From the NCBI GenBank assembly GCA_007375645.1, contig VMER01000003.1:10008-74007 (forward strand): DNA of 64,000 nucleotides, read 5' to 3'. Position numbers and translations under genes: made by a program. This DNA is from Parcubacteria group bacterium LiPW_15 (GTDB lineage Bacteria > Patescibacteriota > Minisyncoccia > UBA6257 > 2-01-FULL-56-20). Shown in pieces: positions 5,622 through 46,216 of this stretch. How positions within the stretch are numbered: the stretch's first letter is position 1; every line of letters starts with the position of its first letter. The notes beneath the pieces were generated by a model. That model was not told where the DNA came from. It was given only the letters and a program-made list of their open reading frames with translations, and did not search any database.

Positions 5622-6426
5622 TATGCCAAGAGTCGACGATGCACTTCAATTCATAATTTCTTGTCTTCGGTCTTCCCCCATGTCTGCTCGGAATTATGGG
5701 TATGACGTATATATCCCAAATGTTTGCAGAACTTACGTTCGGGAAGTTGAACATATTACCGATCAGACTTCGGCAGAGCGACGTGCCCACGAACTTATTG
5801 GCGGTGTTTTTTATGATGCGGCTTGGGAACTTTGCCGCCGAGGCATCCTGCGCCCAAGCGTTCGGGGCAGAAATGAGCAATCGACCGATGACGGATCTGC
5901 AGGCAATGGTTACTCGATAACCACACTCGGCAGATCCTGGCTTGATGAAAATCAGGGCGTTCTTTTTATTCCAACCGAACCTTCGAGAGTAGCGGAGCTC
6001 ATCGGGCGTTTCCGGGGTGATTTCGGTGACGGTTTTTTTCAGAGAGCCCAGGAAGCAGTCAGGTGCTATTCAGCGGGAGCATATCTTGCCTGTTGCGTAA
6101 TGTGTGGAGCAGCAATGGAATCCGTACTTTTACATTTAGCGATTCAGAAAAACGGTGATGAAGTGGCGGTTATGAGAACTTACCGGACTTCAATGGGGAG
6201 GAGTAGAGTCGAGACTATTATTTTACAGGGGGTGCCCGATCACTTAGCGAGAACGTTTCGAAGTTCGACTGACTTATTGAAGTACTGGAGAGACGACGCT
6301 TCGCACGGTGCAGCTTCTGTGATCACAGAGTTCGAGGCATACGAAGCCATTTCGCGTCTCCTCCGTTTTGTTCTATTTGCAGTAGGTCACTTACCGGAGT
6401 TCACGGGTTCTCCTCGGAGAGCGTAA
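5622..6426 (+). CDS. hypothetical protein with a HEPN-like Rx4H motif (possible Abi/toxin component)
   Basis: Start chosen at MPRVDDALQF because the 5482 start overlaps the previous gene; 'YWRDDASHG' fits the HEPN Rx4-6H catalytic motif; cysteine-rich helical region. Confidence 0.35.
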
Positions 6427-8024
6427 GTTCTAACCTCGTTCAACATGTGGAGCCACATGGGATTTGCCACGTCTAAAGCGTGGCTTTTCTCTTTATTAGA
6501 GCCTTCATTGGGAGGTTCTAACCGTCCGATTTTTTGTTTTGATGAAGATGAGACGAGAATCATCGGCAGAAGCGCGGAATCCGTGTCAATGCTTATGTTT
6601 TTGTCCTTTAAGAGGAGGTTCGAACCAAGGGCGGATAAAATTACTTTTCTCGCGTGCTGGCCACGTTCCGTGAAGGCTTCTTTGGCATCGGTTGCGAATT
6701 TGAGCACGTTGTCTGCCGTCTGCAGCCAGCTGTCCACTCTGGCATCGGTGTCGTTCAAAAGCTCGTGCAGTTTTGCTTTTTCTTGATTGATCGTCGATTT
6801 CTTTCTTGCAAACTCTTCCTCGCTTATTTCCCCAGCTGCGCGCATATCTATAAGAGCGTCCAGTTTCCGCACACATGCTTCGTAATTTTTTTGCTGATTG
6901 GAGAGGATCGCATTGCGGTCAGCTGCCTCCCGACCGTTCTCGTTCTGCAACCACTTCATGGCCCAGCCGTGGAATTCTTCCGGTGGCCGGACTTTAGCGA
7001 GTGTGCCGGTGATCTGCTTTTCCATTTCTTTCACTTCTATGCATTTCTGAGTGCACGGACCTTTGCGTTTCGTGCAGTGATAGTAAGTGTAGTGATGAAC
7101 GTTGCCGTTCTTATTTTTCTTTGTCTTATTCTCGGCCGTGACCATGCATCCACACTCACCACACCGGATCATGCCGGTGTAGGCAAAGGAATGCGCTTCT
7201 GGCTTCGGTTTACTGCCACGGCCCAGGAGTACCTGAACGCGATCATATTCATCGCGCGTGATCATCGGCTCGTGCTTGCCCTTGTGCCAGTTGCCCGATC
7301 CGGCCGGCCATTCAAACCATCCGTAGTAGAATGAGTTGTAAAGCACGCGATAAAATCCGCTTCGGGCCAGTTTCTTTAAACCCCACTGATTGACGGCAAT
7401 TTCGTGGACGCGTGGCGCGGTATATGTGCCGCTCAAAATCATATTGAACATTTTTCGGATAATCGGAAACATCTTTGGGTCTTTGCGGATCGTCTTAAAG
7501 CCTTTCATCTTATCCGGCGTGTTCATATAGCCGATCGGAGCAACACCGGGATGCCAGCCCATTTCTACTTTGCGTCTTAAGCCTCGTTTTACATCCACGC
7601 CTTTGTTGTCGTTTTCAAGCTTGGCTTGGCTACACAAAAGGTTTAGTAAAAACTTATCGTTTGGAGAATTCTTAAATGCCTGTCCGGGTGTTCGGATTTC
7701 GAGAAGTTTATTCTGGTCCATAAGGTAGACCAGGTAGCCGGTGTCCACGGAATTACGTGAGAGCCGGTTCGGATGCCACGCAACAATGCCCTCCGCTTCA
7801 CCTTTCTCTATTCGTTTTATCATCGCGTTGAAGATCTCCCGGCCCGGTGCTTTGGCTGAGTAGGATTCTTCGAGACGCTCCACAATCTGAAGCTTTTCCC
7901 GTTTTGCGAGTGCTTCCAATTCGCTCTTTTGCGAGTCAATCGAAAGGACCTGTCTGTCTTCTTGTTCTGAAGATTTTCGAGCGTAGAGGAAGTACTTGAG
8001 TCTTGGTTGTACTTCCTGGTTCAT
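6387..8024 (-). CDS. large serine recombinase (integrase/resolvase family)
   Basis: 545 aa; N-terminal resolvase motif YARKSSEQEDRQVLSIDSQ with a catalytic Ser; recombinase domain followed by a Zn-ribbon (CGECGCM...YYHC) and a coiled coil. Confidence 0.8.
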   Translation of the reverse strand: MNQEVQPRLKYFLYARKSSEQEDRQVLSIDSQKSELEALAKREKLQIVERLEESYSAKAPGREIFNAMIKRIEKGEAEGIVAWHPNRLSRNSVDTGYLVYLMDQNKLLEIRTPGQAFKNSPNDKFLLNLLCSQAKLENDNKGVDVKRGLRRKVEMGWHPGVAPIGYMNTPDKMKGFKTIRKDPKMFPIIRKMFNMILSGTYTAPRVHEIAVNQWGLKKLARSGFYRVLYNSFYYGWFEWPAGSGNWHKGKHEPMITRDEYDRVQVLLGRGSKPKPEAHSFAYTGMIRCGECGCMVTAENKTKKNKNGNVHHYTYYHCTKRKGPCTQKCIEVKEMEKQITGTLAKVRPPEEFHGWAMKWLQNENGREAADRNAILSNQQKNYEACVRKLDALIDMRAAGEISEEEFARKKSTINQEKAKLHELLNDTDARVDSWLQTADNVLKFATDAKEAFTERGQHARKVILSALGSNLLLKDKNISIDTDSALLPMILVSSSSKQKIGRLEPPNEGSNKEKSHALDVANPMWLHMLNEVRTYALRGEPVNSGK

Positions 8025-8025
8025 A

Positions 8026-8889
8026 TTAGTTTTGGAACAAGTCGGTGGTGTTCAGATAGTAAATCAGTTTACCGCCACTTGATATTATGATTCTGGCAAT
8101 CGGGTGCTGCCACGGATCGCCGGTCAGTCCGTCCGGCAGTGAGGCGTTTTTGTCTTCCCATTGCCATTCATTGGCAGCCGGGTTTGCTGCGCCTGGTTTG
8201 CTTGAGATGTATTTAAGCTGGATGTCGGAGCGAAGCATGAATTTTGTGTGTTCCGGGTCTCTGCCGAAATAAGCGAAGGCAATTTGTTCGATTTCAGCTT
8301 TGGTCTTCAGCGGAGTTTCCAGCGATCCGTTACCAGGGCAATTACCTGGCGTGGTAGCGTTGCGTTCTATCGGATAGACAATTCCGATTTCCACGACCTG
8401 ATTCGTTTTTTGCGTTACCTGATATTGATAAACTTCGCAGCGGTCGTTGATGTAATCTGTTTGCTGGAAGATATAGACCGGCCGGTCCCATTCTTCGGGA
8501 TTGTCGGCCGTAAATCCGCCGTCGTTCTGTTTAACGTTGCTTAAGACGGCAAAGTTCGATGGATGATTATTTTGTCCGGTGTATTGCAACTCAAGATTCG
8601 GTTCTCCCATGAACGTCTGAATTGCTTGCTCGGCTTTCACAAGCTCTGTTTGGCTTGGAGGGTTGTCGTTTACAAAAATCCTGCCGTCCGGAGTTTTGCA
8701 CTGATCTGGATAATGCTTAACGATCGGGTAACCGGCCTCAGAGCATTGCTCGAATGTCGTAATTGAGGCTACGTCTGCATTCGTGCCTCCGCGCGGTGCT
8801 TTGTTTCCTAGAAGGTAATAAACCCCGAATCCTGCCCCAAAGACCGCTACAAGGGCGATTACGGTGGTTATTTTGGCTTTGTTTGTCAT
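8026..8889 (-). CDS. secreted or membrane-anchored hypothetical protein
   Basis: 287 aa; N-terminal TM/signal sequence TTVIALVAVFGAGFGVYYLL; immediately downstream of the recombinase. Confidence 0.4.
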   Translation of the reverse strand: MTNKAKITTVIALVAVFGAGFGVYYLLGNKAPRGGTNADVASITTFEQCSEAGYPIVKHYPDQCKTPDGRIFVNDNPPSQTELVKAEQAIQTFMGEPNLELQYTGQNNHPSNFAVLSNVKQNDGGFTADNPEEWDRPVYIFQQTDYINDRCEVYQYQVTQKTNQVVEIGIVYPIERNATTPGNCPGNGSLETPLKTKAEIEQIAFAYFGRDPEHTKFMLRSDIQLKYISSKPGAANPAANEWQWEDKNASLPDGLTGDPWQHPIARIIISSGGKLIYYLNTTDLFQN

Positions 8890-9173
8890 ATGATTGTTTT
8901 CATTAATTATTTAGTCGACCTAAGCACAACATGGTCCTAAGGTCGAAAGAAGTCAAACACTTGATTACTTACATTTTACGCCTTTATTTACAGGTTGGGT
9001 ATCTATTCTTGTGTCGATTTTGTCCTCCTTTTATCCGGTTGTCTTCTCAAAAATCTGCCCAAGTTTCACCCAAGCTTTGCCCAACCCCTATTTTTTAATT
9101 TTTGACGAGCTATCTTGCTTTATTTAAGCTTTATTATTATTTCTTTCTTACTCAATCTTTATTACTAAGTGCT

Positions 9174-9614
9174 TCATGGTGGACCTGGGCCATGATTCTC
9201 TAAGACACCTGACCGTGCTTCATTATGAACCCCGGCAGATTGGAGAAGTCTGGGGTTGAGGCGATACAAAGTTCCGGCCCACCGGCCGCGCTCCGATGTT
9301 CCTGGTCTAGTTTCTATTAGCCCAAGACCGGCAAGTTTCTTTCTAACCCGGCGGCATGTTGATCTGCTGAACCCGAACGAAGCGAACCCGCGCTCCTTGT
9401 CTTCGCGCGTGGTAAACAATCGGTCGGTATGCCAAAACCAGCCGTCTGCATTTGCATAGCGGTTTGAGAGATGGCAGATAACCATGAGAAAATCCCGCTC
9501 GGCGTGCGTGAGCGAATTCTTCAGCTGGTCGTCATCGAAGACCAGGTGAGGAGCTGGAAAGAAATTTAAGCTTTTACCACGTGTTGTCCGGTTCGGTTTG
9601 TTCATATGATTCAC
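9174..9614 (-). CDS. hypothetical phage/plasmid-like DNA-binding protein
   Basis: 146 aa; basic segment with winged-HTH-like character (SRSTCRRVRKKLAGLGLIE); lies in a mobile-element context. Confidence 0.3.
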   Translation of the reverse strand: MNHMNKPNRTTRGKSLNFFPAPHLVFDDDQLKNSLTHAERDFLMVICHLSNRYANADGWFWHTDRLFTTREDKERGFASFGFSRSTCRRVRKKLAGLGLIETRPGTSERGRWAGTLYRLNPRLLQSAGVHNEARSGVLENHGPGPP

Positions 9615-9882
9615 TAAATATTTCAGCTACTTTTTCACTGACGGCTTTTTCGACCAGGACGCCGACTTCGTGGTTAATTGGATGAAAAATATTAATGTTT
9701 TGTCCGGCCACTTTGCGCGTTGGGTACACAAGCCGGTATCCGCCCTCACGTCTGGAGAACACGGCCACCGATCCCATCCAGAATTTACTGTCCAGAACAA
9801 ACGAAACAAACCCAAGGAGGCCGTCCTGGGGTTTAACCGGGTAGAACTGTATTTCGCTAATTGTGGTTGGTGCTGAGGTCAT
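9574..9882 (-). CDS. SpoVG-like protein
   Basis: 102 aa; ISEIQFYPVKPQDGLLGFVSFVLDSKFWMGSVAVFSRREGGYRLVYPTRK...FHPINHEV resembles the SpoVG fold family, which is common on phages. Confidence 0.5.
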   Translation of the reverse strand: MTSAPTTISEIQFYPVKPQDGLLGFVSFVLDSKFWMGSVAVFSRREGGYRLVYPTRKVAGQNINIFHPINHEVGVLVEKAVSEKVAEIFSESYEQTEPDNTW

Positions 9883-10057
9883 GGCTTTTCACTACTTTTT
9901 CTTTGAAATCGTCTATATTCGGCTCACCCATGTAGGTGATCTTGTAGAGCTTGAAAAGATTATTCGCGCGCAAAGCAGCCTCCTCATCGGAGAGCTTCAC
10001 GCCGTAGCGTTTTTCGTAAAGCGTTTTAAATTCTTCGATTGCTTCTTGGGGCAACAT
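9857..10057 (-). CDS. small hypothetical protein
   Basis: 66 aa; overlaps the SpoVG-like gene start in an apparent operon. Confidence 0.25.
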   Translation of the reverse strand: MLPQEAIEEFKTLYEKRYGVKLSDEEAALRANNLFKLYKITYMGEPNIDDFKEKVVKSHDLSTNHN

Positions 10058-10384
10058 AAAAGGCTGGCCCCTGCCGGGAGCTAGCCTTTATCTGTCTAAT
10101 CAAATTCGTCAGTCTAATCGAGGCACCTTAGCCTCAGAGGGAAATTATTTATCAGCAGAGCTAGTTGGAAAACAAAAAACGGGACCACGACTCTTGTCAT
10201 CAAATGCACACGCCGAATGGCAGTGCCGATAACAGTAGTCGTAGTCCCGTCGCGTTTAGACTGAGAATTCAGTCGCCGTCAGACCAACTAACTCTGATGT
10301 ATTTATTTTAGCCGATCCGGAAAAATGCTGCAAGACCCGTTCGCTGTGGACAAGAAATTGTCTGACAAATTCTAATGACAACTT

Positions 10385-10413
10385 TTGCCATTTTTGCCAT
10401 AAAGCGATACAAT
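10385..10413 (+). promoter_or_regulatory. candidate sigma70-type promoter for the HTH-mod-res-NTPase operon
   Basis: TTGCCA, 17-nt spacer, TACAAT; lies ~18 nt upstream of the AAGGAT RBS and the ATG at 10431. Confidence 0.35.
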
Positions 10414-10430
10414 ACCAATAAGGATTTATT

Positions 10431-10631
10431 ATGCCAAACAAACCAGCCGAAAAACTTTTAACCATTGAAGAAGTCGCAGAGATTCTTCGAGTTAGTACCC
10501 GCTCGGTGAACCGCTATATCGAATTGGGAAAACTTAAGGCATCCAAGATTGGTGTATGGCGAATAAAAGAATCTGACCTGAACGCTTTCTTGGAAGATAC
10601 AAGCAATATCAAACCCAAAAAGAAGAAATAA
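10431..10631 (+). CDS. excisionase-family helix-turn-helix DNA-binding protein
   Basis: 66 aa; LLTIEEVAEILRVSTRSVNRYIELGKLKASKIGVWRIKESDLNAFLE matches the excisionase/AlpA-type HTH pattern; ends 4 nt before mod. Confidence 0.6.
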   Translation: MPNKPAEKLLTIEEVAEILRVSTRSVNRYIELGKLKASKIGVWRIKESDLNAFLEDTSNIKPKKKK

Positions 10632-10634
10632 TTT

Positions 10635-12203
10635 ATGCCAACACTAAACTGGATCGGAAAAGAAGCGGTAACAAACCACGACAAAGAGGTTCCTTTTAAA
10701 TTGCTTAAAAAAGTTAAGACCGCTTCGGCTGGTGACAACTCTCAAAATCTAATTATTCATGGTGATAACCTGGAGGCATTGAAAGCTTTGATGCCTTATT
10801 ATGTCGGCCAGGTTAAGTGTATTTATATCGATCCTCCTTACAACACTGGTAACGAAGGCTGGATTTACAACGACAAAGTTAATTCTCCCAAAATTAAGCA
10901 GTGGCTAGGCAAGGTGGTCGGCCGCGAATCAGAAGATCTGACGCGCCACGATAAATGGCTATGCATGATGCATCCTCGCCTAAAACTTCTACGGGACTTG
11001 CTTGCTGAAGATGGTGCAATTTTTGTATCAATCGATGACAACGAACAACACAATTTAAGATCACTGCTTAATGAAATTTTTGAGGAGAAAAACTTTGTTA
11101 CAAATATCATTTGGCAAAAGAAGTACTCACCACAAAATGACGCCAAGTATTTCTCCGACATGCACGACTTCATAGTTGTTTATGCGAAGCATAAGAATAA
11201 AGGAGCAGAAAAGCATGGATGGATAAGAAATTTAATATCCCGAACTGAGCGTCAAAATGCCAGATACAAAAATCCAGATAATGATCCTCGTGGTCCGTGG
11301 AAACCGGCCGATCTTTCAGTAAAAACTTATTCAAAGGCCTATGATTACCCAATCACTACTCCTAGTGGCAGAGTAGTTAATCCTCCCAATGGACGATCGT
11401 GGTCTACGTCGAAAGAAAATTTTGAGGCATGGAGAAATGATAATCGTGTATGGTTCGGAAAGAATGGAAAGAATGTTCCCTCTGTAAAAATATACCTTTC
11501 AGAAGTCCAAGGTGGTACAGTTCCTCTATCCATTTGGTTAAGAGATGAGGTTGGAGATAATCAAGAAGCCAAGCAAGAGATTAAAGAATTATTAGGTACT
11601 GAAAATTTTCCTTTTGATACACCTAAGCCGGTACGTTTAATAAAACGTATTTTGCAGCTTACAACTAATGAAGACTCCTTAGTCATTGATTCCTTTGCCG
11701 GTTCAGGTACTACCGGCCATGCCGTTTTAGATTTGAACAAAGAAGACGGAGGGAATCGTAAATTTATTATGGTTGAAATGGAAGATAAGGTTGCAAAAGA
11801 TATTACAGCCGAGCGAGTTAAGCGTGCAATCAAGAAATACGGTTTTAAAGAAGGTTTTGAGTACTGCGAATTAGACAAGCCCCTTTTTAACGAGCACGGC
11901 CAGATTGAAGATACTTGTGACTTTCGTCAGTTCGCCACTTATATTTACTTCACCGAAACTCAAACCAACATCGATCCGAAGAAAATTGACGAGAATTATA
12001 TCGGTGAACTTGGGACCACTGAGTATTACTTGCTTTATAAGGGCAAGAATAAAAACGATTTGAATAAATCATTTCTAAAGAAAATCAAAAAGACTGAGAA
12101 CAAAAAGGTCATCTATGCGGACCGATGCCTGATTGACGACGAGACGCTTGCCAAGCACAACGTCGCGTTCAAGCAGATCCCTTACGAAGTAAAAGTATAT
12201 TAA
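10635..12203 (+). CDS. mod: Type III restriction-modification system Mod subunit (beta-class N6-adenine DNA methyltransferase)
   Basis: 522 aa; DPPY catalytic motif (IYIDPPYNTGNEGW) lies N-terminal to the AdoMet motif FAGSGTTGHAV, the beta-class order typical of Type III Mod. Confidence 0.85.
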   Translation: MPTLNWIGKEAVTNHDKEVPFKLLKKVKTASAGDNSQNLIIHGDNLEALKALMPYYVGQVKCIYIDPPYNTGNEGWIYNDKVNSPKIKQWLGKVVGRESEDLTRHDKWLCMMHPRLKLLRDLLAEDGAIFVSIDDNEQHNLRSLLNEIFEEKNFVTNIIWQKKYSPQNDAKYFSDMHDFIVVYAKHKNKGAEKHGWIRNLISRTERQNARYKNPDNDPRGPWKPADLSVKTYSKAYDYPITTPSGRVVNPPNGRSWSTSKENFEAWRNDNRVWFGKNGKNVPSVKIYLSEVQGGTVPLSIWLRDEVGDNQEAKQEIKELLGTENFPFDTPKPVRLIKRILQLTTNEDSLVIDSFAGSGTTGHAVLDLNKEDGGNRKFIMVEMEDKVAKDITAERVKRAIKKYGFKEGFEYCELDKPLFNEHGQIEDTCDFRQFATYIYFTETQTNIDPKKIDENYIGELGTTEYYLLYKGKNKNDLNKSFLKKIKKTENKKVIYADRCLIDDETLAKHNVAFKQIPYEVKVY

Positions 12204-12207
12204 AACT

Positions 12208-14475
12208 ATGGAACTCAAACGCTATCAAAAAACTACACTGGAAACGCTCGAGCAGTTCTTGAAGGAATTGCACAAGGCCGGTCTGAAATACGCTTTCATG
12301 GGCATTACCGAGAAGCCCTATCGTGCTGAGGCATTCGGCGAAGTTCCATTTGTATGCATCAAGATACCTACCGGTGGCGGTAAGACTTTGGTTGGTTGCC
12401 ATGCGGTAGAAAAGGTTATGAGCGGAGCCTTGCAGAATAAGCTCGATCGCGGCATCGTGCTGTGGTTTACGCCGTCCGAAGCAATCAAAACTCAGACGCT
12501 AAAGAAGTTTAAAGATCGCAAAGACCCACATCGAAGAGTGCTTGATGAGGCGTTCGATAATAGCGTTAAGATTTTTTCAAACGAAGAAGCTTTATCTATC
12601 CGCAAAGCTGACGTTGCCGATAATCTTTGCATTGTTGTTGCCAGCCTTGAGGCATTCCGCAAAGAGAAGTCTTTGCAAAACAAATATAAAGTCTACCAAG
12701 AGAACGGCGCGCTTTTGGATCATTTTGAACATATTGAGGAACCGGATTTCCTTGAACGAGATAGCGAAGGCACGGTTATAAATTCACTGGCTAACGTGGT
12801 CCGGTTAAGTAATCCGCTAGTGGTAATTGACGAAGGACACAAGACAGCAACTAAGCTTTCTATCGATTTCCTCAAAGACTTAAACCCAAGTTTTATTGTT
12901 GAATACACTGCCACCCCACGAGATAACAGTAATATTCTTGTTGAAATTCATGCTTCTGAACTTAAGGACGAGCAGATGGTAAAGATTCCTATCGTTCTTG
13001 AGAGCGCAGCTCAATGGCAAAATGCTCTGACAAGAGGTATTGAAAAGCGAATAGAGTTGGAAAAGGACGCAAAGAAAATTAAGGGCGAATATATCCGGCC
13101 GATCGCACTTCTCCAAGCACAGCCCAAAAATAAGGACGGCAATACCATCACTGTTGAACACATAAAAGAGTTTTTGATTGAGCGAAAAATCCCAACCGAA
13201 CAAATCGCTATCAAAACTTCAGAAAAGAACGAGCTGGAAGGAGTTGATCTTTTTAGCAGGAGCAGTGATATCCGTTATATCATCACGGTGAATGCTCTGG
13301 CCGAAGGTTGGGATTGTTCTTTTGCTTATGTACTAGTTTCCGTTGCCAACCTTGGTTCAAAGATTGCTGTTGAGCAGATTATCGGACGCATTATCCGTCT
13401 GCCATATGCAAAGAAAAAAGCTAACGAAGACTTTAATAGAAGTTATGTTTTTGCATCAGCCAGGAATTTTAATGAGGCGGCAGAGCAGATTATTTCCGGC
13501 CTGGAAAGCAACGGTTATAGCCGATCAGACATTATCGGGGCCGATAAGAAGGATACCTCTTACGAATTAGAAGCGAAGAAGGCTATCTTAGATACGCTGA
13601 AGGTGCCGATGATGGCCTTGGACGGCGATCAATTAACTTTTGAAGATTTGGTTGGGAGCGACTTCGAGCTTTCAAAACAGGATTATAAATTTGAATTTCA
13701 AATCCATTACGATAACGACGGACGCGCCATTATTGATATCAAGAACGAAGACGAATGGATGCGTGGAAAGCAGATGTTTTTGAAACTTAATTACTCTGAC
13801 AAGAACTTTACAAAGAATGAACTGGTGCAGTGGCTGGATAAGAAGCTACGTTTTCCTCTTTTGGAAAAATCGGACAAAGTCGGTTTCCTCGATAAAGCCA
13901 TTGATTATCAGCTCAAGTCTCACACGCTTTCTGAGCTATCAGTCAATCGTTATGTCTTGGCCGACCGGCTAAGCGAAGTGATTAATGGCATTTTGGAAGA
14001 ATATGCCAAGGAACGCTTCGATTCGCTTTTGCAGAAAAAGAAAATCACTACAGAACCGTTCGACGCTTTCCCGGCCACCATTACTCTCAAACAAGCTATA
14101 CCGCAGGAGTTTAATAGGAATTACTACGAAAAGACAGATAAACTCAACCGCGAAGAGCTTGAGTTCGTCCAGCGTCTCGATCTCGACACACTTTCTAATA
14201 TTAAATATTGGGTTCGCAGCCGTGAGAAGATTGATCCGTTTTACATTCAGGGCTGGAAACGCGGAAAGTTTTATCCAGACTTTGTTGCTGTAACCAAAAA
14301 AGGAAATATTATCGCCCTCGAATGGAAAGGTGCGGATCGCGTAAGCAATGAAGATACTGCTTATAAAGTTAAGATTGGCGAGATTTGGTCGAATCTTGGA
14401 GGCAACAAACTGCACTTCTTCTTGGTGCATACCGGCAACGTAGAAGAAGTTCTAAAAGAAATAAAAGAGCTGTAA
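12208..14475 (+). CDS. res: Type III restriction enzyme Res subunit (SF2 helicase-nuclease)
   Basis: 755 aa; Walker A KIPTGGGKT; DEGH box VVIDEGHK; helicase motifs; directly follows mod after a 4-nt gap. Confidence 0.8.
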   Translation: MELKRYQKTTLETLEQFLKELHKAGLKYAFMGITEKPYRAEAFGEVPFVCIKIPTGGGKTLVGCHAVEKVMSGALQNKLDRGIVLWFTPSEAIKTQTLKKFKDRKDPHRRVLDEAFDNSVKIFSNEEALSIRKADVADNLCIVVASLEAFRKEKSLQNKYKVYQENGALLDHFEHIEEPDFLERDSEGTVINSLANVVRLSNPLVVIDEGHKTATKLSIDFLKDLNPSFIVEYTATPRDNSNILVEIHASELKDEQMVKIPIVLESAAQWQNALTRGIEKRIELEKDAKKIKGEYIRPIALLQAQPKNKDGNTITVEHIKEFLIERKIPTEQIAIKTSEKNELEGVDLFSRSSDIRYIITVNALAEGWDCSFAYVLVSVANLGSKIAVEQIIGRIIRLPYAKKKANEDFNRSYVFASARNFNEAAEQIISGLESNGYSRSDIIGADKKDTSYELEAKKAILDTLKVPMMALDGDQLTFEDLVGSDFELSKQDYKFEFQIHYDNDGRAIIDIKNEDEWMRGKQMFLKLNYSDKNFTKNELVQWLDKKLRFPLLEKSDKVGFLDKAIDYQLKSHTLSELSVNRYVLADRLSEVINGILEEYAKERFDSLLQKKKITTEPFDAFPATITLKQAIPQEFNRNYYEKTDKLNREELEFVQRLDLDTLSNIKYWVRSREKIDPFYIQGWKRGKFYPDFVAVTKKGNIIALEWKGADRVSNEDTAYKVKIGEIWSNLGGNKLHFFLVHTGNVEEVLKEIKEL

Positions 14476-14489
14476 ATTATGGAATATTT

Positions 14490-17400
14490 ATGGCAAAACG
14501 ACTTACCAGAAATGAAGATGCGCCGTTCTACTTCGAGAAATTATATGCAGGGATTTGTTTTTTAGACCTTCTCACAAGCACATCCTCTTTAGAGAAAATA
14601 GAAATTAAACCTGATAGGAAACACGGTTCCGTTAGAAGAATTGAAGATCTAACCAAATATCATACAGATGATAGTGTTGAGATTGTTCAAATTAAACACA
14701 CACTCAATCAAGGTACCAAATGGGGTTTCGCTGATCTTTGGGTAAGTAATATACGTCCAAAAACATCTTCTCGTCGCAAAGAAGGAACGAATATATTTAA
14801 GTTTTTAAAAAGTTGGCGCACCCATAAAGATAATGGGAAAAATGTTTCTTTAATTATAGCTAGCAATAAAATACCTACTAACGATCTAAATAGCCTGTTA
14901 AGAGATATCGGGAGAGTCAATAAAAGGAAGCTGTCTTGGAGAAAATTCCAAACTAAATATTCCACTGAGCTAAAAAATATTGAAGCAAATTGTAGTGAAG
15001 AACCATTTAGCAATAAAAAAGAATTAAAAGACTTCATTGGGGCGTTTCGCTTCCAAAAACTTCCCGATATAGAATCTTTAGAAAAGAGATTAGTAGTAAA
15101 ACTTAAAAAGCAAGGCGTTATCGATAATGACCGTGTAAATGCGTTCATAAATAGAGTCACAAAAACTTTTGTATCGGACCAAGTAGAAATATTCTCAACT
15201 CATGTTGCTAGTTTAATCGATCGATTAAAAACGGGTTTGATTCAGGAGATTATCGCGCCGCCAAATTACATTGAACGTCCTGAGTTAGAAAAGAAGATTA
15301 TTAAGGCAATAGAGATTAAGAAAAAGAATGGAGGGTTTGTTCTTTTATTTGCCCCTTCTGGCTCTGGGAAAACCGTATTACTTTCTAGACTAGCAGAGAA
15401 AAATCCGGATTTCTTTCCCTATTTTTGTCGCATTCGTCCTTTTGAAACTACAAAAAATCGGGCTGGCCATTCAAATACAAACAGACTAAAAAGCTCATGG
15501 TTTAAGGCAGACATCATTCAAAGATGTTTTGAATTTGGTTTATTGCCAATGTCTATAGGCGTAAACGATAATGAGGACTTTATTGATAAAACATTTGATG
15601 AGGCTTTAAAAAAATTGAGCGAAAAGGCACTTCAGAGACCAGGGAAAAAAATTGTCATCATCGTCGACGCATTAGATCAGGTGGAGACTGATAAATATAA
15701 GGAACGGTCTGTACTAGATGCAATACCATCGGTTAATTACCCCGGAGTAATTTTCTTATTAAGTACTTGGGGAGAAAAGTACTTACCTCAATCAATTAAA
15801 AATTTATCAGCGAATATAAAAAAAGAAATCAGTACTGATCTGTATTTTAGTGAAATAGAAACAAAGCAATATCTCGAGAAAGCAAATATCAGTTTGTCCC
15901 AAGACCAGGCAACAATAATTAAAAACAAAACCGGAGGATTAGCTATCTCACTATTTTACCTCAGCAAAAAGGTACAAGGTGGAGGGAGTCTCGATGAAGT
16001 AATTGGTTCGCAAGAACAATACTCTGAAGTTTTTGATTGGTATAAACCTATCTGGAATAGTTTTAATAATCGCGAGAAGGAATGTTTGGGATATTTATGT
16101 TTCCACTTTTCGCCGGTACCAAGGCAGGATTTACGCAACATAGTTTCCAAATTTAATACGGCAAGCTTCAATAATCTCATAGAAAAAATTGAACATTTTT
16201 TGGTTGCGAACAGCAACAGTCTTGAACCATATCATGATAGCTTTAGAAGATTTGTGGTGAGTAGGTTGTCGAAAGATAAGGACGCTTTTCACCAACGGAT
16301 CGCCAAATATTATTCTCAAAACACCCGGTTATTATATGGTCGCAAGTATACAATCAAACATTTAGAAGCAGTAGGCTTGTCGCAGCTGTCTGTCAGAAAC
16401 ACATATGCCGTGCTTCACAAAAATCAGTTTTTCGGAGAAATATTACGATCAAATATTGATAATCAAACCAAGGTTGAGGTTGGTAAGAGTTTTGTAAATT
16501 ATTTTTTTCAGACAAATAATATTGAACACTTGGTAAAGTATGCGGTTACTACCAGCGATATTTACCCGACAGTTCATGATGAGGATGTTTATTCAAAAGC
16601 TAAAATCGCAACCGATAAACTTCTGAAAGAAGTCGAAGAAGAATTATTACTCCCCAAAGGTGATCAGCCCTGGCTACGTCAAGAATGGGTCTTTAAGCGT
16701 CTGGCCATAGGGAATATTCTCGCCAAGAAAAAAAGCAAGAACTGTTTAACTCTAGCTCATCGTCTTATAGACGACAGCCTTTTCAGGATTTCTTTAGACA
16801 GAGAATTGCTCTGGGGAAATGATAATCGCTCTCAAGATCGTTTTTGGGATAATGCCGAGGAGCTTGCAACCGCATTGGTTAATATTGGTCGGTATAAACG
16901 AAGCTTAACTTTCCTAAAGAAAGAGATAGGTTTCAAGAAAAATAAATCCATTCTTCAAGGATTTAAGGGTAACTATATAACGAGAATTCATCTTCAGCAC
17001 CTTAAAACAAATATCGATGAAGCTTTAACAGCGATTCGTCGCGCGCCCAAAATAGAACGCCTTTTAACCTATTTGCAGATGGAAAAAGAAGGTATCAATG
17101 TGCCTAACAAGAAAGACTTTAAAACATTATTAGCAGATGAGAAGCTCGAGAAGTATTTATATAACGATAGCTATATCAACCAGTATCTGGATTTAAGTGA
17201 GGCTTTATTTGTGCATAACGTTAGGGGTCGAAAAGAAAGAATAATAAGACTATTAGACAAGGTAAAATTGGAAATCCCTTATCATGATCACGGGTACTCT
17301 TATTGGGGAACTCATGGAAACAACCGAGATACTTTCATGCGTTGGACGGCGTTACGGTCTTTGGTGGACAGAAGTTTCAAGTTGGGAGAGTTTTATTCAC

Positions 17401-19187
17401 AAGAATTAAAAAATAAATTTTCTAAATCAAATGATAATTCCGAGAGGGAGAATCCTGAATTCGTAAAGGTTTTGTCCATAGGGCAAGAATTAACGAAATC
17501 CAGATTACTTCTGAGAGCAAAAAAGATTATATGGCAATCCTTCAAAAAATTATTTGATAATAGTTTGAAATTATATAAAGAAAAAATTGATCAGATAAAC
17601 GCACAGCGTGAATCACATTATTCTGCGGACATACAAAAAAATTTATATCCCTACAGCCAAGATTTACACAACTTAATTGATGACAATATTTGGGAAATAA
17701 ACTCGCTGTTCCCAAATAAATTATTAAATTCTCTAGATAGATTGGAAAAAATATTCGGTCATGATTATGTTAGCAACAAGGCAGAACTTTTAGAAAGCCT
17801 CGTTTCTTTAACTACGCCAAAAACTTCTACATTAAAAGAAAAAATAGAAGGCTATTTGAACCGGGCTTTAGAACTGCGACAAAAAGAAGAGCTTGATAAT
17901 TTAAATAAGAGCGACAATTTAAAAAAACTGGCTGTTCTAGCTGCTCATAAAGGTTTCCCGGAAATGGCGGATGATATATTTGAGAAAAATCTTAAATATT
18001 CTCGCGGTCTCTGGAATAAAGGCGATCTAAGGATAACTAATCTTATTGATTCGGCGCGCACTCAAAAAAAAGAACATTTCGAACCAATCTTAAAATTAAT
18101 TGATCGTGTTTCTGATGTTATAGAAGGATCGTGGTATTGGAAACTTGATTTTTTGGAATCAGCCGCCTATGCCGATTATTCTCTGGCCCTGGATTATCTT
18201 TCTTCTTTTGTGATGAAAAGTGAAGTAAATCAAAATCAGGCTTTAGAGCGAATAATATCAACTTATATAAAACGTAATCCGTATAGTAAGTTCTCCGAAA
18301 TCCTCCCCCTTCTAAGATTGATGGATGTTAAAGAAGAAAACTCTTCTGATTATTTTGAATATATTACTAAAGCCTATCTTGCCTCCATAAAGTGGTCCTT
18401 ATTCAACAAAGATTACACAACAGCTAAAAGCCTGGCGCGGCAATACTATTTAATTCTTAAAACGGATGTTGAACCATCGCATAGAATGAATTTATTGAGG
18501 GACTTTTCTGCATCGTTAGCTGATCCGGAGTTAAAAACAATTCTAAGAGAGGTTGGCGTATATTTAAAAAAGTTGGAGCAAGAAGGATATCGAGCGGCTG
18601 AGAAAAGCAACTCTGAATTTAAAGTTAGTTATAAAGACTTAAATATTAAACAATTAAAAACTCTGGCCCAAAAAGGCCAGATTGAAGCCCTACAGAAAAA
18701 AATAAATGAGTACGCTAAAACGGAAGGTTATTTTACATACAGACTGATTACTGAATTAGTCCCTTCGCTTAGCGATAACGATCTTCAAAAAATTAGAAAA
18801 TGGGGATCAGAAAATAAAGTGAATGTGGACAGCCCCGAATTATTTGTGGCTATTTTGAAAAAGGCAGTCAGGATTAATAATAAGCGACTGATAAATAAAA
18901 CGCGATCAGAAATAATCCAATATTTGAAATCATCTGAACGTGATTACGGGTTAAGTGAGATTATAAGAGAGCTTGATAAAATAGACTTTCCGAAAAAGAA
19001 GGAGTTGTTAAGGAGGCTGCTATTATTGGGCATTTGCAGATTAACGGGAAGTGGTTACTACCTACCACAGTTTTTTACTTACACCTCCGAAAGCATTGAT
19101 TCATATTTTCCAGAATTAAAAGGATACGCTTTTTCAAGCTGGAAAAATATCGTAAATAAATCCATGCGCCTTTCTCTATCACAATGA
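14490..19187 (+). CDS. large STAND-like P-loop NTPase with an N-terminal nuclease-like domain and C-terminal helical repeats
   Basis: 1565 aa counted from the ATG at 14490, 15 nt after the res stop; Walker A LLFAPSGSGKTVL; Walker B KKIVIIVDALDQ; N-terminal 'TDDSVEIVQIKH' is a possible D...QxK REase-like motif; ~1000-aa alpha-helical TPR-like tail; very AT-rich. Confidence 0.6.
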   Translation: MAKRLTRNEDAPFYFEKLYAGICFLDLLTSTSSLEKIEIKPDRKHGSVRRIEDLTKYHTDDSVEIVQIKHTLNQGTKWGFADLWVSNIRPKTSSRRKEGTNIFKFLKSWRTHKDNGKNVSLIIASNKIPTNDLNSLLRDIGRVNKRKLSWRKFQTKYSTELKNIEANCSEEPFSNKKELKDFIGAFRFQKLPDIESLEKRLVVKLKKQGVIDNDRVNAFINRVTKTFVSDQVEIFSTHVASLIDRLKTGLIQEIIAPPNYIERPELEKKIIKAIEIKKKNGGFVLLFAPSGSGKTVLLSRLAEKNPDFFPYFCRIRPFETTKNRAGHSNTNRLKSSWFKADIIQRCFEFGLLPMSIGVNDNEDFIDKTFDEALKKLSEKALQRPGKKIVIIVDALDQVETDKYKERSVLDAIPSVNYPGVIFLLSTWGEKYLPQSIKNLSANIKKEISTDLYFSEIETKQYLEKANISLSQDQATIIKNKTGGLAISLFYLSKKVQGGGSLDEVIGSQEQYSEVFDWYKPIWNSFNNREKECLGYLCFHFSPVPRQDLRNIVSKFNTASFNNLIEKIEHFLVANSNSLEPYHDSFRRFVVSRLSKDKDAFHQRIAKYYSQNTRLLYGRKYTIKHLEAVGLSQLSVRNTYAVLHKNQFFGEILRSNIDNQTKVEVGKSFVNYFFQTNNIEHLVKYAVTTSDIYPTVHDEDVYSKAKIATDKLLKEVEEELLLPKGDQPWLRQEWVFKRLAIGNILAKKKSKNCLTLAHRLIDDSLFRISLDRELLWGNDNRSQDRFWDNAEELATALVNIGRYKRSLTFLKKEIGFKKNKSILQGFKGNYITRIHLQHLKTNIDEALTAIRRAPKIERLLTYLQMEKEGINVPNKKDFKTLLADEKLEKYLYNDSYINQYLDLSEALFVHNVRGRKERIIRLLDKVKLEIPYHDHGYSYWGTHGNNRDTFMRWTALRSLVDRSFKLGEFYSQELKNKFSKSNDNSERENPEFVKVLSIGQELTKSRLLLRAKKIIWQSFKKLFDNSLKLYKEKIDQINAQRESHYSADIQKNLYPYSQDLHNLIDDNIWEINSLFPNKLLNSLDRLEKIFGHDYVSNKAELLESLVSLTTPKTSTLKEKIEGYLNRALELRQKEELDNLNKSDNLKKLAVLAAHKGFPEMADDIFEKNLKYSRGLWNKGDLRITNLIDSARTQKKEHFEPILKLIDRVSDVIEGSWYWKLDFLESAAYADYSLALDYLSSFVMKSEVNQNQALERIISTYIKRNPYSKFSEILPLLRLMDVKEENSSDYFEYITKAYLASIKWSLFNKDYTTAKSLARQYYLILKTDVEPSHRMNLLRDFSASLADPELKTILREVGVYLKKLEQEGYRAAEKSNSEFKVSYKDLNIKQLKTLAQKGQIEALQKKINEYAKTEGYFTYRLITELVPSLSDNDLQKIRKWGSENKVNVDSPELFVAILKKAVRINNKRLINKTRSEIIQYLKSSERDYGLSEIIRELDKIDFPKKKELLRRLLLLGICRLTGSGYYLPQFFTYTSESIDSYFPELKGYAFSSWKNIVNKSMRLSLSQ

Positions 19188-20680
19188 ATACACTAGAATT
19201 TCTTTCAACTTATTTAAAATCACCAATCATTGCATATCGCAATAAATCTTTATTGTGCTTATTTGAAAATTCTAAACGTGATCAAAGAACAATAAACCAA
19301 TTAGGGCTAAATCTAAATTCAGATAACCTGGATATTGTTTTGAACAGTCTCCGGATCATATATTCCATTAGTCTTCTAGGAAATCCTAAGTTACAAACAA
19401 TTAATGGAAAAATCGCTAAGCTCGGATTGCAGACAAATCACTTCACCATTGCATGTCTATGCAGAGATATTTTGGATGAAATTGGTAATAAGGTAGCATC
19501 CAAAGCAAAATCTATTACTAAAATAATTACACCTGAAATAATTGAGCCAGTTGATGAAGAAATGTTCTTTGATAATTGTGATTACTCTCTTGAGTATTCC
19601 TTAGGGGCTAAAGATTATAAATATGAGCTGTCCCATATTTGCAGGACTTTTAGATATGATTGCAAGAAAGCGGCTAAGCAAGTATTCGCCAATATGAGAA
19701 TACTTGGGTATAGAAAAAAAGTTCAATATTGGAAAGAGCGGCCATCACGCTGGCAGCATGATTTCGAGGGTAATCGATATGAAACCAGGCTAAATTATTT
19801 TGCTAGACATGCAATTCAAATGTTTTTAATGTGGTGCGTCCAAAACTTATCAACTACAGAAAATGATTGGTTAGAACTTCTAACAAGCCAACGAAAATGT
19901 GATGCTTCTTTGCCAAAATTAAGCATACAAGAAAGACCGCATTTCGTACGATTTACAGATTTAGAAATAAACACGGAGAAATGGATAAAGGGCAGAATTA
20001 AAAATCGTGATGCCTATGAGCTTTTTGATCCGAAAGCAAAATGGTTTCCGCTATACGAAAGCACTGACTTCAAATATGAAGATAAAGCATTTAATAGGCA
20101 CATAACCACCTGTTTTATTAAACCTCCAACATTTAAAATTTCAAAGAAACTTGAATTTTCTACACCAAATTACAGCTGCCGAAATTCCTACATAAATGAA
20201 CTGCCTATAAAGGCAAGGCAGAATGGTAGGTTATATTTGGACGATTCTGGTAATCGACACGATGAATTAAAAGACAAGTTACTTCCTTCATACGGGATTG
20301 TTTCTGAGGACTTTGATGATTGCGTTAAACTTTTTCCCGCCCCAGAAATAATAGAGCATTTCAAGTTATCACAAAGAAAAAATACGTTAAGTTATTATAA
20401 AGGGTCAGAGCTGGTTGCTTATTGTGTTAATTGGCAGGATGGTTATTACCGTAATGTAGGACGACAAGGAGAAGATAAGTTTGAGCTTGCTAACCACGGT
20501 CATTTATTGATGGTAAAGACTAAGTATATTAAAAAGTATTTAGCCGATAAAAATTTGAGGTTGTTAGTAATGGGCAATGTTTGGAAAAGAAAAGTAGATA
20601 AATGGTCCCATGAGGGTGATTACAGTAATAAAAAAACCTCAAAACATAAGTGGTTATCTTTTGAGATAATTAAATTTTAA
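19184..20680 (+). CDS. hypothetical protein translationally coupled to the STAND NTPase
   Basis: 498 aa; its ATG overlaps the NTPase stop (ATGA); no recognisable motif. Confidence 0.5.
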   Translation: MNTLEFLSTYLKSPIIAYRNKSLLCLFENSKRDQRTINQLGLNLNSDNLDIVLNSLRIIYSISLLGNPKLQTINGKIAKLGLQTNHFTIACLCRDILDEIGNKVASKAKSITKIITPEIIEPVDEEMFFDNCDYSLEYSLGAKDYKYELSHICRTFRYDCKKAAKQVFANMRILGYRKKVQYWKERPSRWQHDFEGNRYETRLNYFARHAIQMFLMWCVQNLSTTENDWLELLTSQRKCDASLPKLSIQERPHFVRFTDLEINTEKWIKGRIKNRDAYELFDPKAKWFPLYESTDFKYEDKAFNRHITTCFIKPPTFKISKKLEFSTPNYSCRNSYINELPIKARQNGRLYLDDSGNRHDELKDKLLPSYGIVSEDFDDCVKLFPAPEIIEHFKLSQRKNTLSYYKGSELVAYCVNWQDGYYRNVGRQGEDKFELANHGHLLMVKTKYIKKYLADKNLRLLVMGNVWKRKVDKWSHEGDYSNKKTSKHKWLSFEIIKF

Positions 20681-20751
20681 TTAATCCAATTGAACGACGA
20701 TTCGTGACGTAGGTGCGACAGAGCGTGAAGTAGTTGATATCTGCATGACCA

Positions 20752-21072
20752 ATGTCAACAAAAATGCCAAAACAGTTGATATTAATATTATGCAAAGAAT
20801 ACATAAAATATTTAAAAGATAATCCGCAGGGCTATTGGTTCAAGGCGCGACTCTACGGTTGGGGCTGGGTGCCGGCGAAATGGCAGGGGTGGCTTGTTGT
20901 GGCTATTGGCGTAGCTATTTTTATTGCCGGTATTTATGTTGGAGATACCGATGACGCACCAGGTGCAGCTCTCTTGGGTTTTCTACTAATGATTGCGCTT
21001 ATATTCACCTTTGGTTATTGGAAAGGAGAAAAACCACGCTGGCAGTGGGGATCGCCTAAAAATAAGGAATAA
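20752..21072 (+). CDS. small membrane protein
   Basis: 106 aa with two TM helices and a W-rich loop; C-terminal motif DDAPGAALLGFLL shared with the ORF at 24136. Confidence 0.35.
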   Translation: MSTKMPKQLILILCKEYIKYLKDNPQGYWFKARLYGWGWVPAKWQGWLVVAIGVAIFIAGIYVGDTDDAPGAALLGFLLMIALIFTFGYWKGEKPRWQWGSPKNKE

Positions 21073-44852: not shown

Positions 44853-45254
44853 CTACTTCAACTTCTCTAACAAATTATCATATTCCGAAACCCATTCTGG
44901 ATGAATAGTCCATTTAACATCTTGCCCATCATCTTTTTTCCTTGGCACAATGTGGAAATGAACATGAAATACATCTTGCTGGGCTTCAGGCCCAGAACTG
45001 TTAATAATCTGTAAATTTTCTATTCCTAATTTCTCCTTATACAAAACTGATAGTTTTTTGACGACCCCAATTATTTGCTCGAGTTCTTTTGTCGGAACAT
45101 CAAATATATTTTCGTAATGGCTCTTTGGAATAATTAGAGTGTGATATTTACTTGCGGGGTGAATATCTAGAAATGCGTACACATTTTCATCCTCGTAGAC
45201 TTTCCAAGATTTTTCGTTCCTTTTGCTTATTTCACAGAATATACATTTATTCAT
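44853..45254 (-). CDS. HIT-family hydrolase
   Basis: 133 aa; histidine triad HVHFHIVPR. Confidence 0.75.
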   Translation of the reverse strand: MNKCIFCEISKRNEKSWKVYEDENVYAFLDIHPASKYHTLIIPKSHYENIFDVPTKELEQIIGVVKKLSVLYKEKLGIENLQIINSSGPEAQQDVFHVHFHIVPRKKDDGQDVKWTIHPEWVSEYDNLLEKLK

Positions 45255-45760: not shown

Positions 45761-45830
45761 TTGAGTGATTCTAAACCAAACAATATAAATTGTAAAATCT
45801 CCCCGGGTATTGTATATTCAACTAGAAAAA

Positions 45831-45905
45831 GCCCTCGTAGTTCAATGGATAGAACTGCTCACTCCTAACGAGCCGATCGAGGTTCGATTCCTCGCGAGGG
45901 CACCA
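45831..45905 (+). tRNA. tRNA-Arg (anticodon CCT)
   Basis: GCCCTCGTAGTTCAATGGATAGAACTGCTCACTCCTAACGAGCCGATCGAGGTTCGATTCCTCGCGAGGGCACCA forms a cloverleaf; anticodon loop CUCCUAA; CCA is encoded. Confidence 0.85.
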
Positions 45906-45911
45906 AACAAA

Positions 45912-45945
45912 AAAACTGGTCACTTGCCGGCCAGTTTTTTGTTTG
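45912..45945. terminator. bidirectional hairpin terminator after tRNA-Arg
   Basis: AAAAAAACTGGTCACTTGCCGGCCAGTTTTTTG. Confidence 0.4.
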
Positions 45946-45953
45946 CGTGTTTC

Positions 45954-46066
45954 GAGCGAGGAATCGAACAGCGAAAGGGGTCGGGAAACCGCGCTCGGTT
46001 TCCCGTGTTGGAAATTATTCAAAACCGAGGGTTTTGAAAAGCGAAGCGCGCGAGCTTCCTCGCGAG
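45954..46066. repeat. copy 2 of the ~115-nt structured repeat element; its termini duplicate or invert the tRNA-Arg 3' end
   Basis: Terminal stem GCGAGGAA/TTCCTCGC; hairpins GGGAAACCG-CGCT-CGGTTTCCC and CAAAACC-GAG-GGTTTTG; the 3' end TTCCTCGCGAGGGCAC repeats tRNA-Arg 45888..45903. Confidence 0.5.
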
Positions 46067-46077
46067 GGCACAAATAT

Positions 46078-46106
46078 AAAAACAGGACCTATCGGGTTCT
46101 GTTTTT
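46078..46106. terminator. bidirectional hairpin terminator
   Basis: AAAAACAGGACC-TATC-GGGTTCTGTTTTT. Confidence 0.45.
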
Positions 46107-46216
46107 ATATTTCGTCTTTATTGGAGGAACCGAACAGTTAGAAAAAGAACTCATTTGCCAAAACCCAACATAGCTGGCATAATAGGAACCGGTTCAAATT
46201 TCTTAACGAGGAGGAC

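Follow-up and report, generated by a model that had tools for sequence, protein, structure and literature searches.

Two copies of a previously undescribed family of structured RNA-like elements, about 115-145 nt in length, lie in the 64,000-nt stretch of DNA analyzed here (the window). The family occurs directly 3′ of tRNA and tmRNA genes in CPR/Patescibacteria, where it is known from about 40 loci. We regard it as highly probable that these are conserved structured elements in which both the closing helix and the tail are copies of host tRNA sequence. As to what they do, our preferred reading, to which we give a probability of roughly 0.55, is that each is an RtT-like tRNA-trailer RNA that is transcribed from the promoter of the tRNA and comes and goes by recombination through tRNA 3′-end homology. 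That reading rests on the position of the elements, on two operon-internal copies, on a long, fresh repeat at locus L060, and on the precedent of RtT RNA.

One of the two window copies, copy 2, follows a tRNA-Arg(CCT) gene and is organized as follows.

45790..45818, + strand, sigma-70-like promoter of tRNA-Arg (TTGTAA-17-TATATT), the sole promoter-like site upstream of copy 2
45831..45905, + strand, tRNA-Arg(CCT) gene, CCA encoded, which hosts copy 2 (ARAGORN and Rfam, 61.9 bits)
45905..45949, no strand assigned, hairpin T1 between tRNA and element, with an A-rich 5′ arm and a T-rich 3′ arm, terminator-like in both directions
45950..46067, + strand, copy 2 of the element, with limits from covariance model R1 (121.4 bits)
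45953..45969, + strand, 5′ arm (P1 5′ strand), CGAGCGAGGAATCGAAC
45982..46005, + strand, P2 hairpin, CGGGAAACCG-CGCT-CGGTTTCCCG, with 9 of 10 pairs changing on both sides across the family
46010..46038, + strand, J2/3 GGAAAUUA, then P3 hairpin TTCAAAACC-GAG-GGTTTTGAA; the J2/3 purine co-varies with a P3 pair (candidate base triple)
46041..46049, + strand, minimal P4, GCG-AAG-CGC, at which other copies have a longer hairpin
46056..46071, + strand, 3′ tRNA-end copy, made up of the P1 3′ strand TTCCTCGC and the unpaired tail GAGGGCAC
46072..46112, no strand assigned, hairpin T2, terminator-like, a diverged counterpart of T1 (31/46 identical)
46123..46137, + strand, GGAGGAACCGAACAG, a second but truncated arm-like inverted copy of the T-arm of tRNA-Arg, after T2; the segment in which L054 differs has its right edge here

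An earlier note on this DNA had described inverted and direct duplications of the tRNA-Arg 3′ end on either side of a conserved core. Both duplications are present, as are the terminator that it placed after the tRNA (a T-rich hairpin at 45905-45949) and every sequence that it quoted, at the positions it gave. The tRNA 3′ end, TTCGATTCCTCGCGAGGGCACCA, occupies 45883-45905, and the element begins 45-48 nt past the gene (R1 match from 45950, arm from 45953). Within the arm, GCGAGGAATCGAAC (45956-45969) is the exact reverse complement of tRNA positions 45882-45895, which comprise the T-loop, the 3′ strand of the T-stem and the first acceptor base; a repeat finder reported the inverted pair as 45877-45895 and 45956-45974 (19 nt, 89%). 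The direct copy, TTCCTCGCGAGGGCAC (46056-46071), matches tRNA-Arg(CCT) 45888-45903 at 16 of 16 positions, and the inverted and direct tRNA-derived repeats pair with each other as an RNA-type helix. Weak similarity of the two direct repeats extends through the T1 and T2 hairpins. If these hairpins are old duplicates, then the difference between 16/16 identity in the tRNA-derived segment and 31/46 in the adjoining hairpins argues that the tRNA-like part is under constraint or has been renewed. A 26-nt probe taken from the core matched at copies 1 and 2 only in the window, with 0 matches expected by chance. The second arm-like inverted copy beyond T2 may be the stump of an older element; its counterpart in the relative L054 (~1993-2009) reads CGCGAGGAACCGAACAG and is complementary to the tRNA at 14 of 15 positions.

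Copy 1 is an orphan with no tRNA gene upstream, and it lies directly downstream of an island-like block that spans approximately 6387-21848 of the window.

6387-8024, large serine recombinase in the block upstream of copy 1
10635-14475, type III restriction-modification pair in the same block
22039..22166, + strand, copy 1 of the element (133.5 bits)

The block also encodes a 1600-aa STAND-like NTPase and a DUF2975 and HTH pair. The arm of copy 1 occupies 22044-22058 and its tRNA-like 3′ end 22152-22170, with flanking hairpins at ~22000-22040 and 22176-22210. As had been noticed before, this copy terminates in GATTCCCTACCCGCGGA (22152-22168), which is mirrored at the 5′ end by CGGGTAGGAATC (22044-22055). 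The accompanying suggestion that the terminus came from a different tRNA is plausible, since it resembles the tRNA-Asn 3′ end seen in L050, but there is no such tRNA in the window, across which three patterns for a cognate tRNA were run and found none. Copy 1 is probably an element that was split from its tRNA by an inserted island, as has happened in two other loci. In L016, a 10.3-kb island carrying a large serine recombinase and a type III restriction-modification system lies between tRNA-Trp and the element (L017 and L037 are empty at this place), and in L003 a 0.6-kb insert separates the tRNA from the element; the element is left undisturbed in both.

Each window copy folds into a closing helix, P1, formed by the arm and the tRNA-like 3′ segment, around hairpins P2 and P3. 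P1 closes a conserved multi-helix junction (P2, P3 and an optional P4) that is kept by compensatory change, and such changes are found in P1, P2 and P3 between copies 1 and 2 themselves. In a MAFFT alignment of 31 distinct copies, 88.9% of the cells pair according to a structure drawn by hand, compared to 28-54% when the partners are slid by 1-3 columns. When 36 copies were aligned with model R1, 91.7% of the cells paired, 26 of the 37 pairs changed on both sides, and the covariation score was 0.301 (versus 0.134 in shuffles and ≤0.11 in slid controls), although this alignment leans toward the structure because it was fitted to the model. Extra or variable-length hairpins occur at loops and junctions only (L027; L015, L032 and L038; the P4 variants), and the junction nucleotides are strongly conserved. 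In 33 of 35 sequences J2/3 has the same purine as one particular P3 pair (18 G.G-C and 15 A.A-U). This is the pattern expected of a base triple, for which it is a candidate on the strength of the alignment, and linkage by descent may be part of the cause. On the tRNA strand G.U exceeds A.C by 25 to 10, which favors that strand as the RNA by just 2.5:1, and for the isolated element shuffle z-scores were slightly better on the minus strand.

The ends of the element follow whichever tRNA lies next to it. The 3′ end copies the host tRNA from the T-loop to the discriminator, and the 5′ arm is antisense to the T-loop, T-stem and acceptor. Of the 26 copies that adjoin a tRNA, 23 have a 3′ end with 12-22 exact nt in common with their own tRNA, against approximately 5-7 nt with other tRNAs; in the decayed copies L023, L034 and L038, the stretch common to the 3′ end and the own tRNA is 6-7 nt. 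The match to tRNA ends across the family is not due to chance. Unusual T-loops (GACTCC, CAATTCC, CAAATCC) are reproduced in both the arm and the 3′ end, and the Trp-linked copies, which have an extra hairpin in common within the 3′ segment, nevertheless carry tRNA-specific 12-nt segments that follow three different tRNA-Trp sequences. The direct repeat varies in length from 12 to ~60 nt across the family. Pairing energies agree with this dependence on the host: the variable parts of the arm pair with the cognate 3′ end at -10.0 kcal/mol and with non-cognate ends at -7.7 kcal/mol (p = 2e-4), some arms being weak. In each of the 26 cases, however, the arm complements the tRNA itself even better than it does the 3′ end of its own element (-22.1 vs. 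-15.0 kcal/mol). P1 contains a conserved tandem G.A because the element's own 3′ end has GUGAGA where the tRNA has GUUCGA. In the minimum free energy fold predicted for a read-through RNA from tRNA to element (-120.3 kcal/mol, z = -8.97), the tRNA T-arm would pair with the arm and the tRNA 5′ acceptor strand with the distal copy, as judged from energy prediction only.

The extent of the family was established by scanning with patterns built from the two window copies. A core pattern run over a genome collection found 5 true loci, and an independent pattern run over metagenomes found 37 loci; since both patterns derive from the window copies, the sample is biased toward similar cores. Every true match was on a CPR/Patescibacteria contig. 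We give the affiliation at that level only, because the names of the genome matches (Ca. Saccharibacteria) disagree with those of the proteins nearest to the window's (Ca. Liptonbacteria); the window proteins match those of Parcubacteria group bacterium LiPW_15 at 100% identity. Scans of viral contigs returned a chance coding match or nothing and gave no sign of a phage origin. Among the tRNA and tmRNA genes in the fetched loci, 33 of 57 are followed on the same strand by an element no more than 120 nt away, typically at 42-82 nt, a count in which some loci are duplicates and tRNA-Thr(GGU) of L036 is an artefact, the true host there being the tRNA-Tyr downstream of it. The hosts comprise 17 anticodon species (16 plus the Ala(GGC) of L060) and the tmRNA of L021. 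They are Arg(CCU, CCG, GCG), Glu(CUC, UUC), Gly(CCC, GCC, UCC), Ile(GAU, UAU), Ala(GGC), Trp, Met, Pro, Leu, Tyr and His. Clustering of the cores showed no clear pattern by tRNA type or genome, the clusters mostly mirroring P2 and P3 pairs that have two states. When copies 1 and 2 and five other loci were searched against Rfam at the gathering threshold and at E ≤ 10, no family matched beyond chance, a search that covered RtT, the IS605-orfB motifs, ribozymes and riboswitches.

Other sequences occupy the same layout of arm, core and tRNA 3′ end. A different core lies behind tRNA-Ala(CGC) in L024 (~1500-1750, - strand), and a mini core of ~70 nt lies behind the tmRNA in L021 (~7560-7700, - strand). 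A possible further core was seen behind tRNA-Ala(CGC) in L028 (~7880-7990, - strand). Model R1 detects none of these three. Given that other cores exist, the layout is a general solution and does not belong to one sequence alone.

The element would be transcribed together with its tRNA. No promoter-like site adjoins copy 1 or copy 2 in the window, and the tRNA-Arg promoter is the sole candidate; terminator-like hairpins bracket each of the two copies. In L036, a diverged copy begins 10 nt after tRNA-Tyr and ends 20 nt before the next tRNA, with no terminator in between, and in L033 the element starts 13 nt after tRNA-Leu; in these loci it must belong to the tRNA transcript. Elsewhere, to judge from the arrangement of the sequence, we infer that transcription would reach the element by read-through of T1, in which case little RNA would be made if T1 is efficient.

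Comparison of related loci indicates that the element is gained and lost quickly. A 102-aa protein encoded near copy 2 has a single homologue, and this led to the key relative L054. In L054/L055 the neighboring protein is 98% identical and the flanks are near-identical, and there is no element behind the same tRNA-Arg. This near-identity of the flanks continues up to ...GCGAGGGCACC (...GGGCACC) and resumes at GAGGAACCGAACAG, with ~80 nt of other sequence between them. L054 and the window are not a clean empty/filled pair, since L054 has this different filler. At the tRNA-Arg(CCT) site L064 is likewise empty, and L062 and L003 are filled. The opposite situation is found in L060, a relative whose HtrA-type protease is 90% identical to that encoded downstream of the window's tRNA-Ser. 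An element follows its tRNA-Ala(GGC), which is identical to the window's tRNA-Ala, behind which the window has none; the direct repeat in L060 is 60 nt long (58/60 identical) and spans the whole terminator. Absence from the tRNA-Arg site of a near-identical relative and presence behind an identical tRNA-Ala in another are the basis for inferring rapid turnover. The comparison of relatives that had earlier been proposed for the tRNA-Arg site found both states, and the idea of a mobile unit at tRNA 3′ ends holds as far as gain and loss on a short time scale are concerned (L054/L055, L060), whereas the association with an integrase is not supported.

A further feature of this neighborhood is an HIT-family gene (44853-45254, - strand) beside tRNA-Ala(GGC), which is missing from the near-identical L054/L055. 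Its homologues elsewhere (L056-L058) adjoin serine recombinase, Bro-N and REP genes, and the gene appears to be a small mobile islet at the tRNA. HIT-protein homologues failed as a synteny anchor for the reason that the HIT gene is itself mobile.

The closest known counterpart of the element is the RtT RNA of Escherichia coli (RF00391; rttR, the tyrT operon repeats). RtT units also follow tRNA genes directly and on the same strand, and they can occur in tandem. Their 3′ end equals the last ~19 nt of the tRNA, from T-loop to CCA, and their 5′ arm is the reverse complement of its T-loop, T-stem and acceptor; in the Rfam consensus the arm and the 3′ end form a closing helix and leave the ...CCACCA tail free, just as P1 and the tail do here. 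We found the same in the E. coli tyrT region, where the units stand behind tRNA-Tyr and have its last 19 nt as their 3′ terminus; the sequence GGGGAAGGAU within them is the reverse complement of the T-loop and T-stem of that tRNA. The cores, however, are unrelated. RF00391 (gathering score 45 bits) gave no match at E ≤ 10 to copies 1 and 2 or to the elements of L036, L024, L033, L035 and L007, and reciprocally model R1 scored RtT at 7.4 bits or less. RtT is found behind tRNA-Tyr in enterobacteria as tandem units of 178 bp, whereas the CPR family serves 17 tRNA species and tmRNA, mostly as single units with a hairpin between tRNA and element. The element is therefore RtT-like by architecture, a tRNA-trailer element that is not a member of RF00391. 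The gene order in L036 (1119-1513, - strand), tRNA-Thr, tRNA-Tyr, element, tRNA-Thr, mirrors the thrU-tyrU-glyT-thrT operon of E. coli, with the element in the place of glyT.

Under the tRNA-trailer reading, the inverted duplication is the 5′ strand of P1, and the direct duplication is its 3′ strand together with a single-stranded tail made up of the acceptor 3′ strand and discriminator. Having no promoter of its own, the element would be transcribed from that of the tRNA, either directly, where there is no terminator between them, or through read-through of T1, and its tRNA-like 3′ end could be trimmed by the machinery of tRNA 3′ maturation. The 3′ end of RtT is reportedly trimmed in this way. 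The unit consisting of tRNA 3′ end (with or without terminator), arm and core would be gained and lost by recombination within tRNA 3′-end homology, in a Campbell-like or duplicative manner; we propose that the tRNA is never destroyed because gain and loss run within that homology. Selection for an RNA function or for propagation may then keep the core. The preference of the arm for the tRNA over its own 3′ end in every one of the 26 cases counts against this reading, as a mere closing helix does not explain it.

The duplications had earlier been taken as the footprint expected of a site-specific integrase, left by a miniature mobile element or an excised island, or else as the work of an element that copies tRNA ends, and it is the last of these three options that comes closest. 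A search for a cognate tyrosine integrase found none anywhere in the window and none beside the copies examined; the recombinases seen are of the large serine type and sit on separate islands, and a single core serves 17 anticodon species and tmRNA, which does not fit such a footprint. Nor does the window contain TnpB, IscB, IS110 or intron features, and no recombinase or partner protein linked to the element was identified. The ~170-bp unit might still be a miniature non-autonomous integrative element (CIME- or MITE-like) that a recombinase encoded elsewhere moves into tRNA T-loops, with the direct repeat as attL/attR and the core as DNA bound by the enzyme. We consider this rather unlikely. 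It would account for direct repeats that begin in the T-loop and, like those of integrase att sites, reach or pass the end of the tRNA, for a tRNA that stays intact, for the use of tmRNA as a target and for presence and absence that differ between near-identical relatives, and islands do insert at the 3′ ends of tRNA genes in these genomes (L016, L003). Against it, one core for so many tRNA species plus tmRNA would demand many specificities or a guide, no copy has a linked recombinase or integrase while the islands with large serine recombinases leave the element untouched, and the variable length of the direct repeat is at odds with the fixed target duplication and constant terminal inverted repeats of a classical transposon or MITE, the arms here changing with the tRNA. 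The insert is also non-coding, its inverted copy pairs with its direct copy, and the compensatory changes inside it, the tolerance of G.U, the restriction of insertions to loops and the triple-like covariation are all signatures of RNA. The view that the element is a functionless, decaying attR scar, left when a larger island was excised or deleted, is effectively excluded: duplicated tRNA ends are typical of island scars, and degenerate tRNA-end remnants do lie upstream of some copies (L003, L016, L029), but the ~100 nt that are enclosed are conserved in about 40 loci with compensatory substitutions, orphan copies stay intact, islands insert between tRNA and element without involving the latter, and genuine scars at these loci are, in comparison, short and degenerate.

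The arm's preference for the tRNA would be best explained, together with the conserved free tail, by an RNA whose target is its own tRNA or the gene for that tRNA, an idea that we hold to be improbable overall. The arm would serve as a guide or splint that spans position 58/59 in the T-loop of the cognate tRNA or of its gene, and the tail as a second acceptor 3′ strand, and the core, a catalytic or protein-binding scaffold of ~100 nt such as a small ribozyme, would re-pair, replace or repair the tRNA 3′ end or direct the element's own insertion. In its favor are the better complementarity of the arm to the tRNA (26/26), an unpaired tail that stays identical to the acceptor strand, the predicted read-through fold in which the tRNA 5′ acceptor pairs with the distal copy and the T-arm with the arm, and the strongly conserved junction nucleotides. 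The layout also recalls TnpB omega RNAs, IS110 bridge RNAs and the internal guide of group I introns, which join a conserved scaffold to variable segments that match a site; the arm spans the putative junction 58/59 as a group I internal guide spans the splice site, and omega RNAs likewise have a variable 3′ segment after the scaffold. In contrast to these guide RNAs, the guide-like arm here pairs with the 3′ segment and the adjacent target tRNA gene is intact; Rfam gives no matches. Against this idea, which comes from sequence and energy models only, each upstream tRNA gene is complete and has a normal score, no known ribozyme motif matches, and the core is kept even where the 3′ end has decayed (L008, L034, L038) or contains an extra hairpin (the Trp group). 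Should such a guided device prove to exist, a doubtful prospect as it stands, E. coli RtT would be a distant example of the same principle.

The origin of the copied ends was considered separately. A retro-copy of the mature tRNA, with CCA in the copy and not in the gene, fits L018 and L027; L003, L044 and the window show the reverse, and the direct repeat of some copies extends into the trailer or terminator, so we rejected it as a general rule. An origin of the arm as a quasi-palindrome by snap-back was rejected as well, the complementarity lying at tRNA positions 53-68 and not at 69-76 next to the hairpin.

With the tRNA-trailer reading, RtT RNA, a 45-year-old orphan of E. coli genetics, gains a relative by architecture that is much larger and more informative. 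One core re-fitted to at least 17 tRNAs and tmRNA provides a natural series of arm and tail variants, so that both the role of tRNA-trailer RNA and the copying of tRNA ends become testable by comparison and simple in vitro work. CPR bacteria, whose small genomes have few non-coding RNAs, gain a well-supported structured RNA, and the sequence behind their tRNA genes is seen to turn over between near-identical strains. For annotation, it would be a mistake to take partial tRNA-end repeats of this kind for att sites of prophages or islands.

Several other features of the window and its relatives were observed. Many tRNA genes in the CPR loci end in discriminator-C-A/N (e.g., ...GGGCAC|AAA) instead of a full CCA, and at several filled sites CCA is present in either the gene or the copy, not both. 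A recurrent post-tRNA module occurs in L054 (~2010-2085, - strand) and L046 (~2076-2146); it consists of CCCTAAAAC, a terminator hairpin, the perfect palindrome GTTCGGGCCCGAAC and a co-varying hairpin, followed by GTTNTAGGGC. L035 contains at 1267-1330 a partial tandem copy of tRNA-Ala(GGC) in which the T-arm and acceptor 3′ end are identical, the 5′ acceptor strand is missing and the anticodon arm is different. On the reverse strand of L050, a tRNA-like sequence of ~88 nt (acceptor GCCGCGG/CCGCGGA, T-arm CCAGGTTCGAGTCCTGG) that neither ARAGORN nor Rfam calls lies between tRNA-Asn and the element, and the tRNA-Asn is enclosed by a 16-nt inverted repeat. The window also contains a full-length LOOT RNA (RF03000; 1228-1345, - strand, 90.9 bits) beside a 1265-aa ORF that has no Pfam match.
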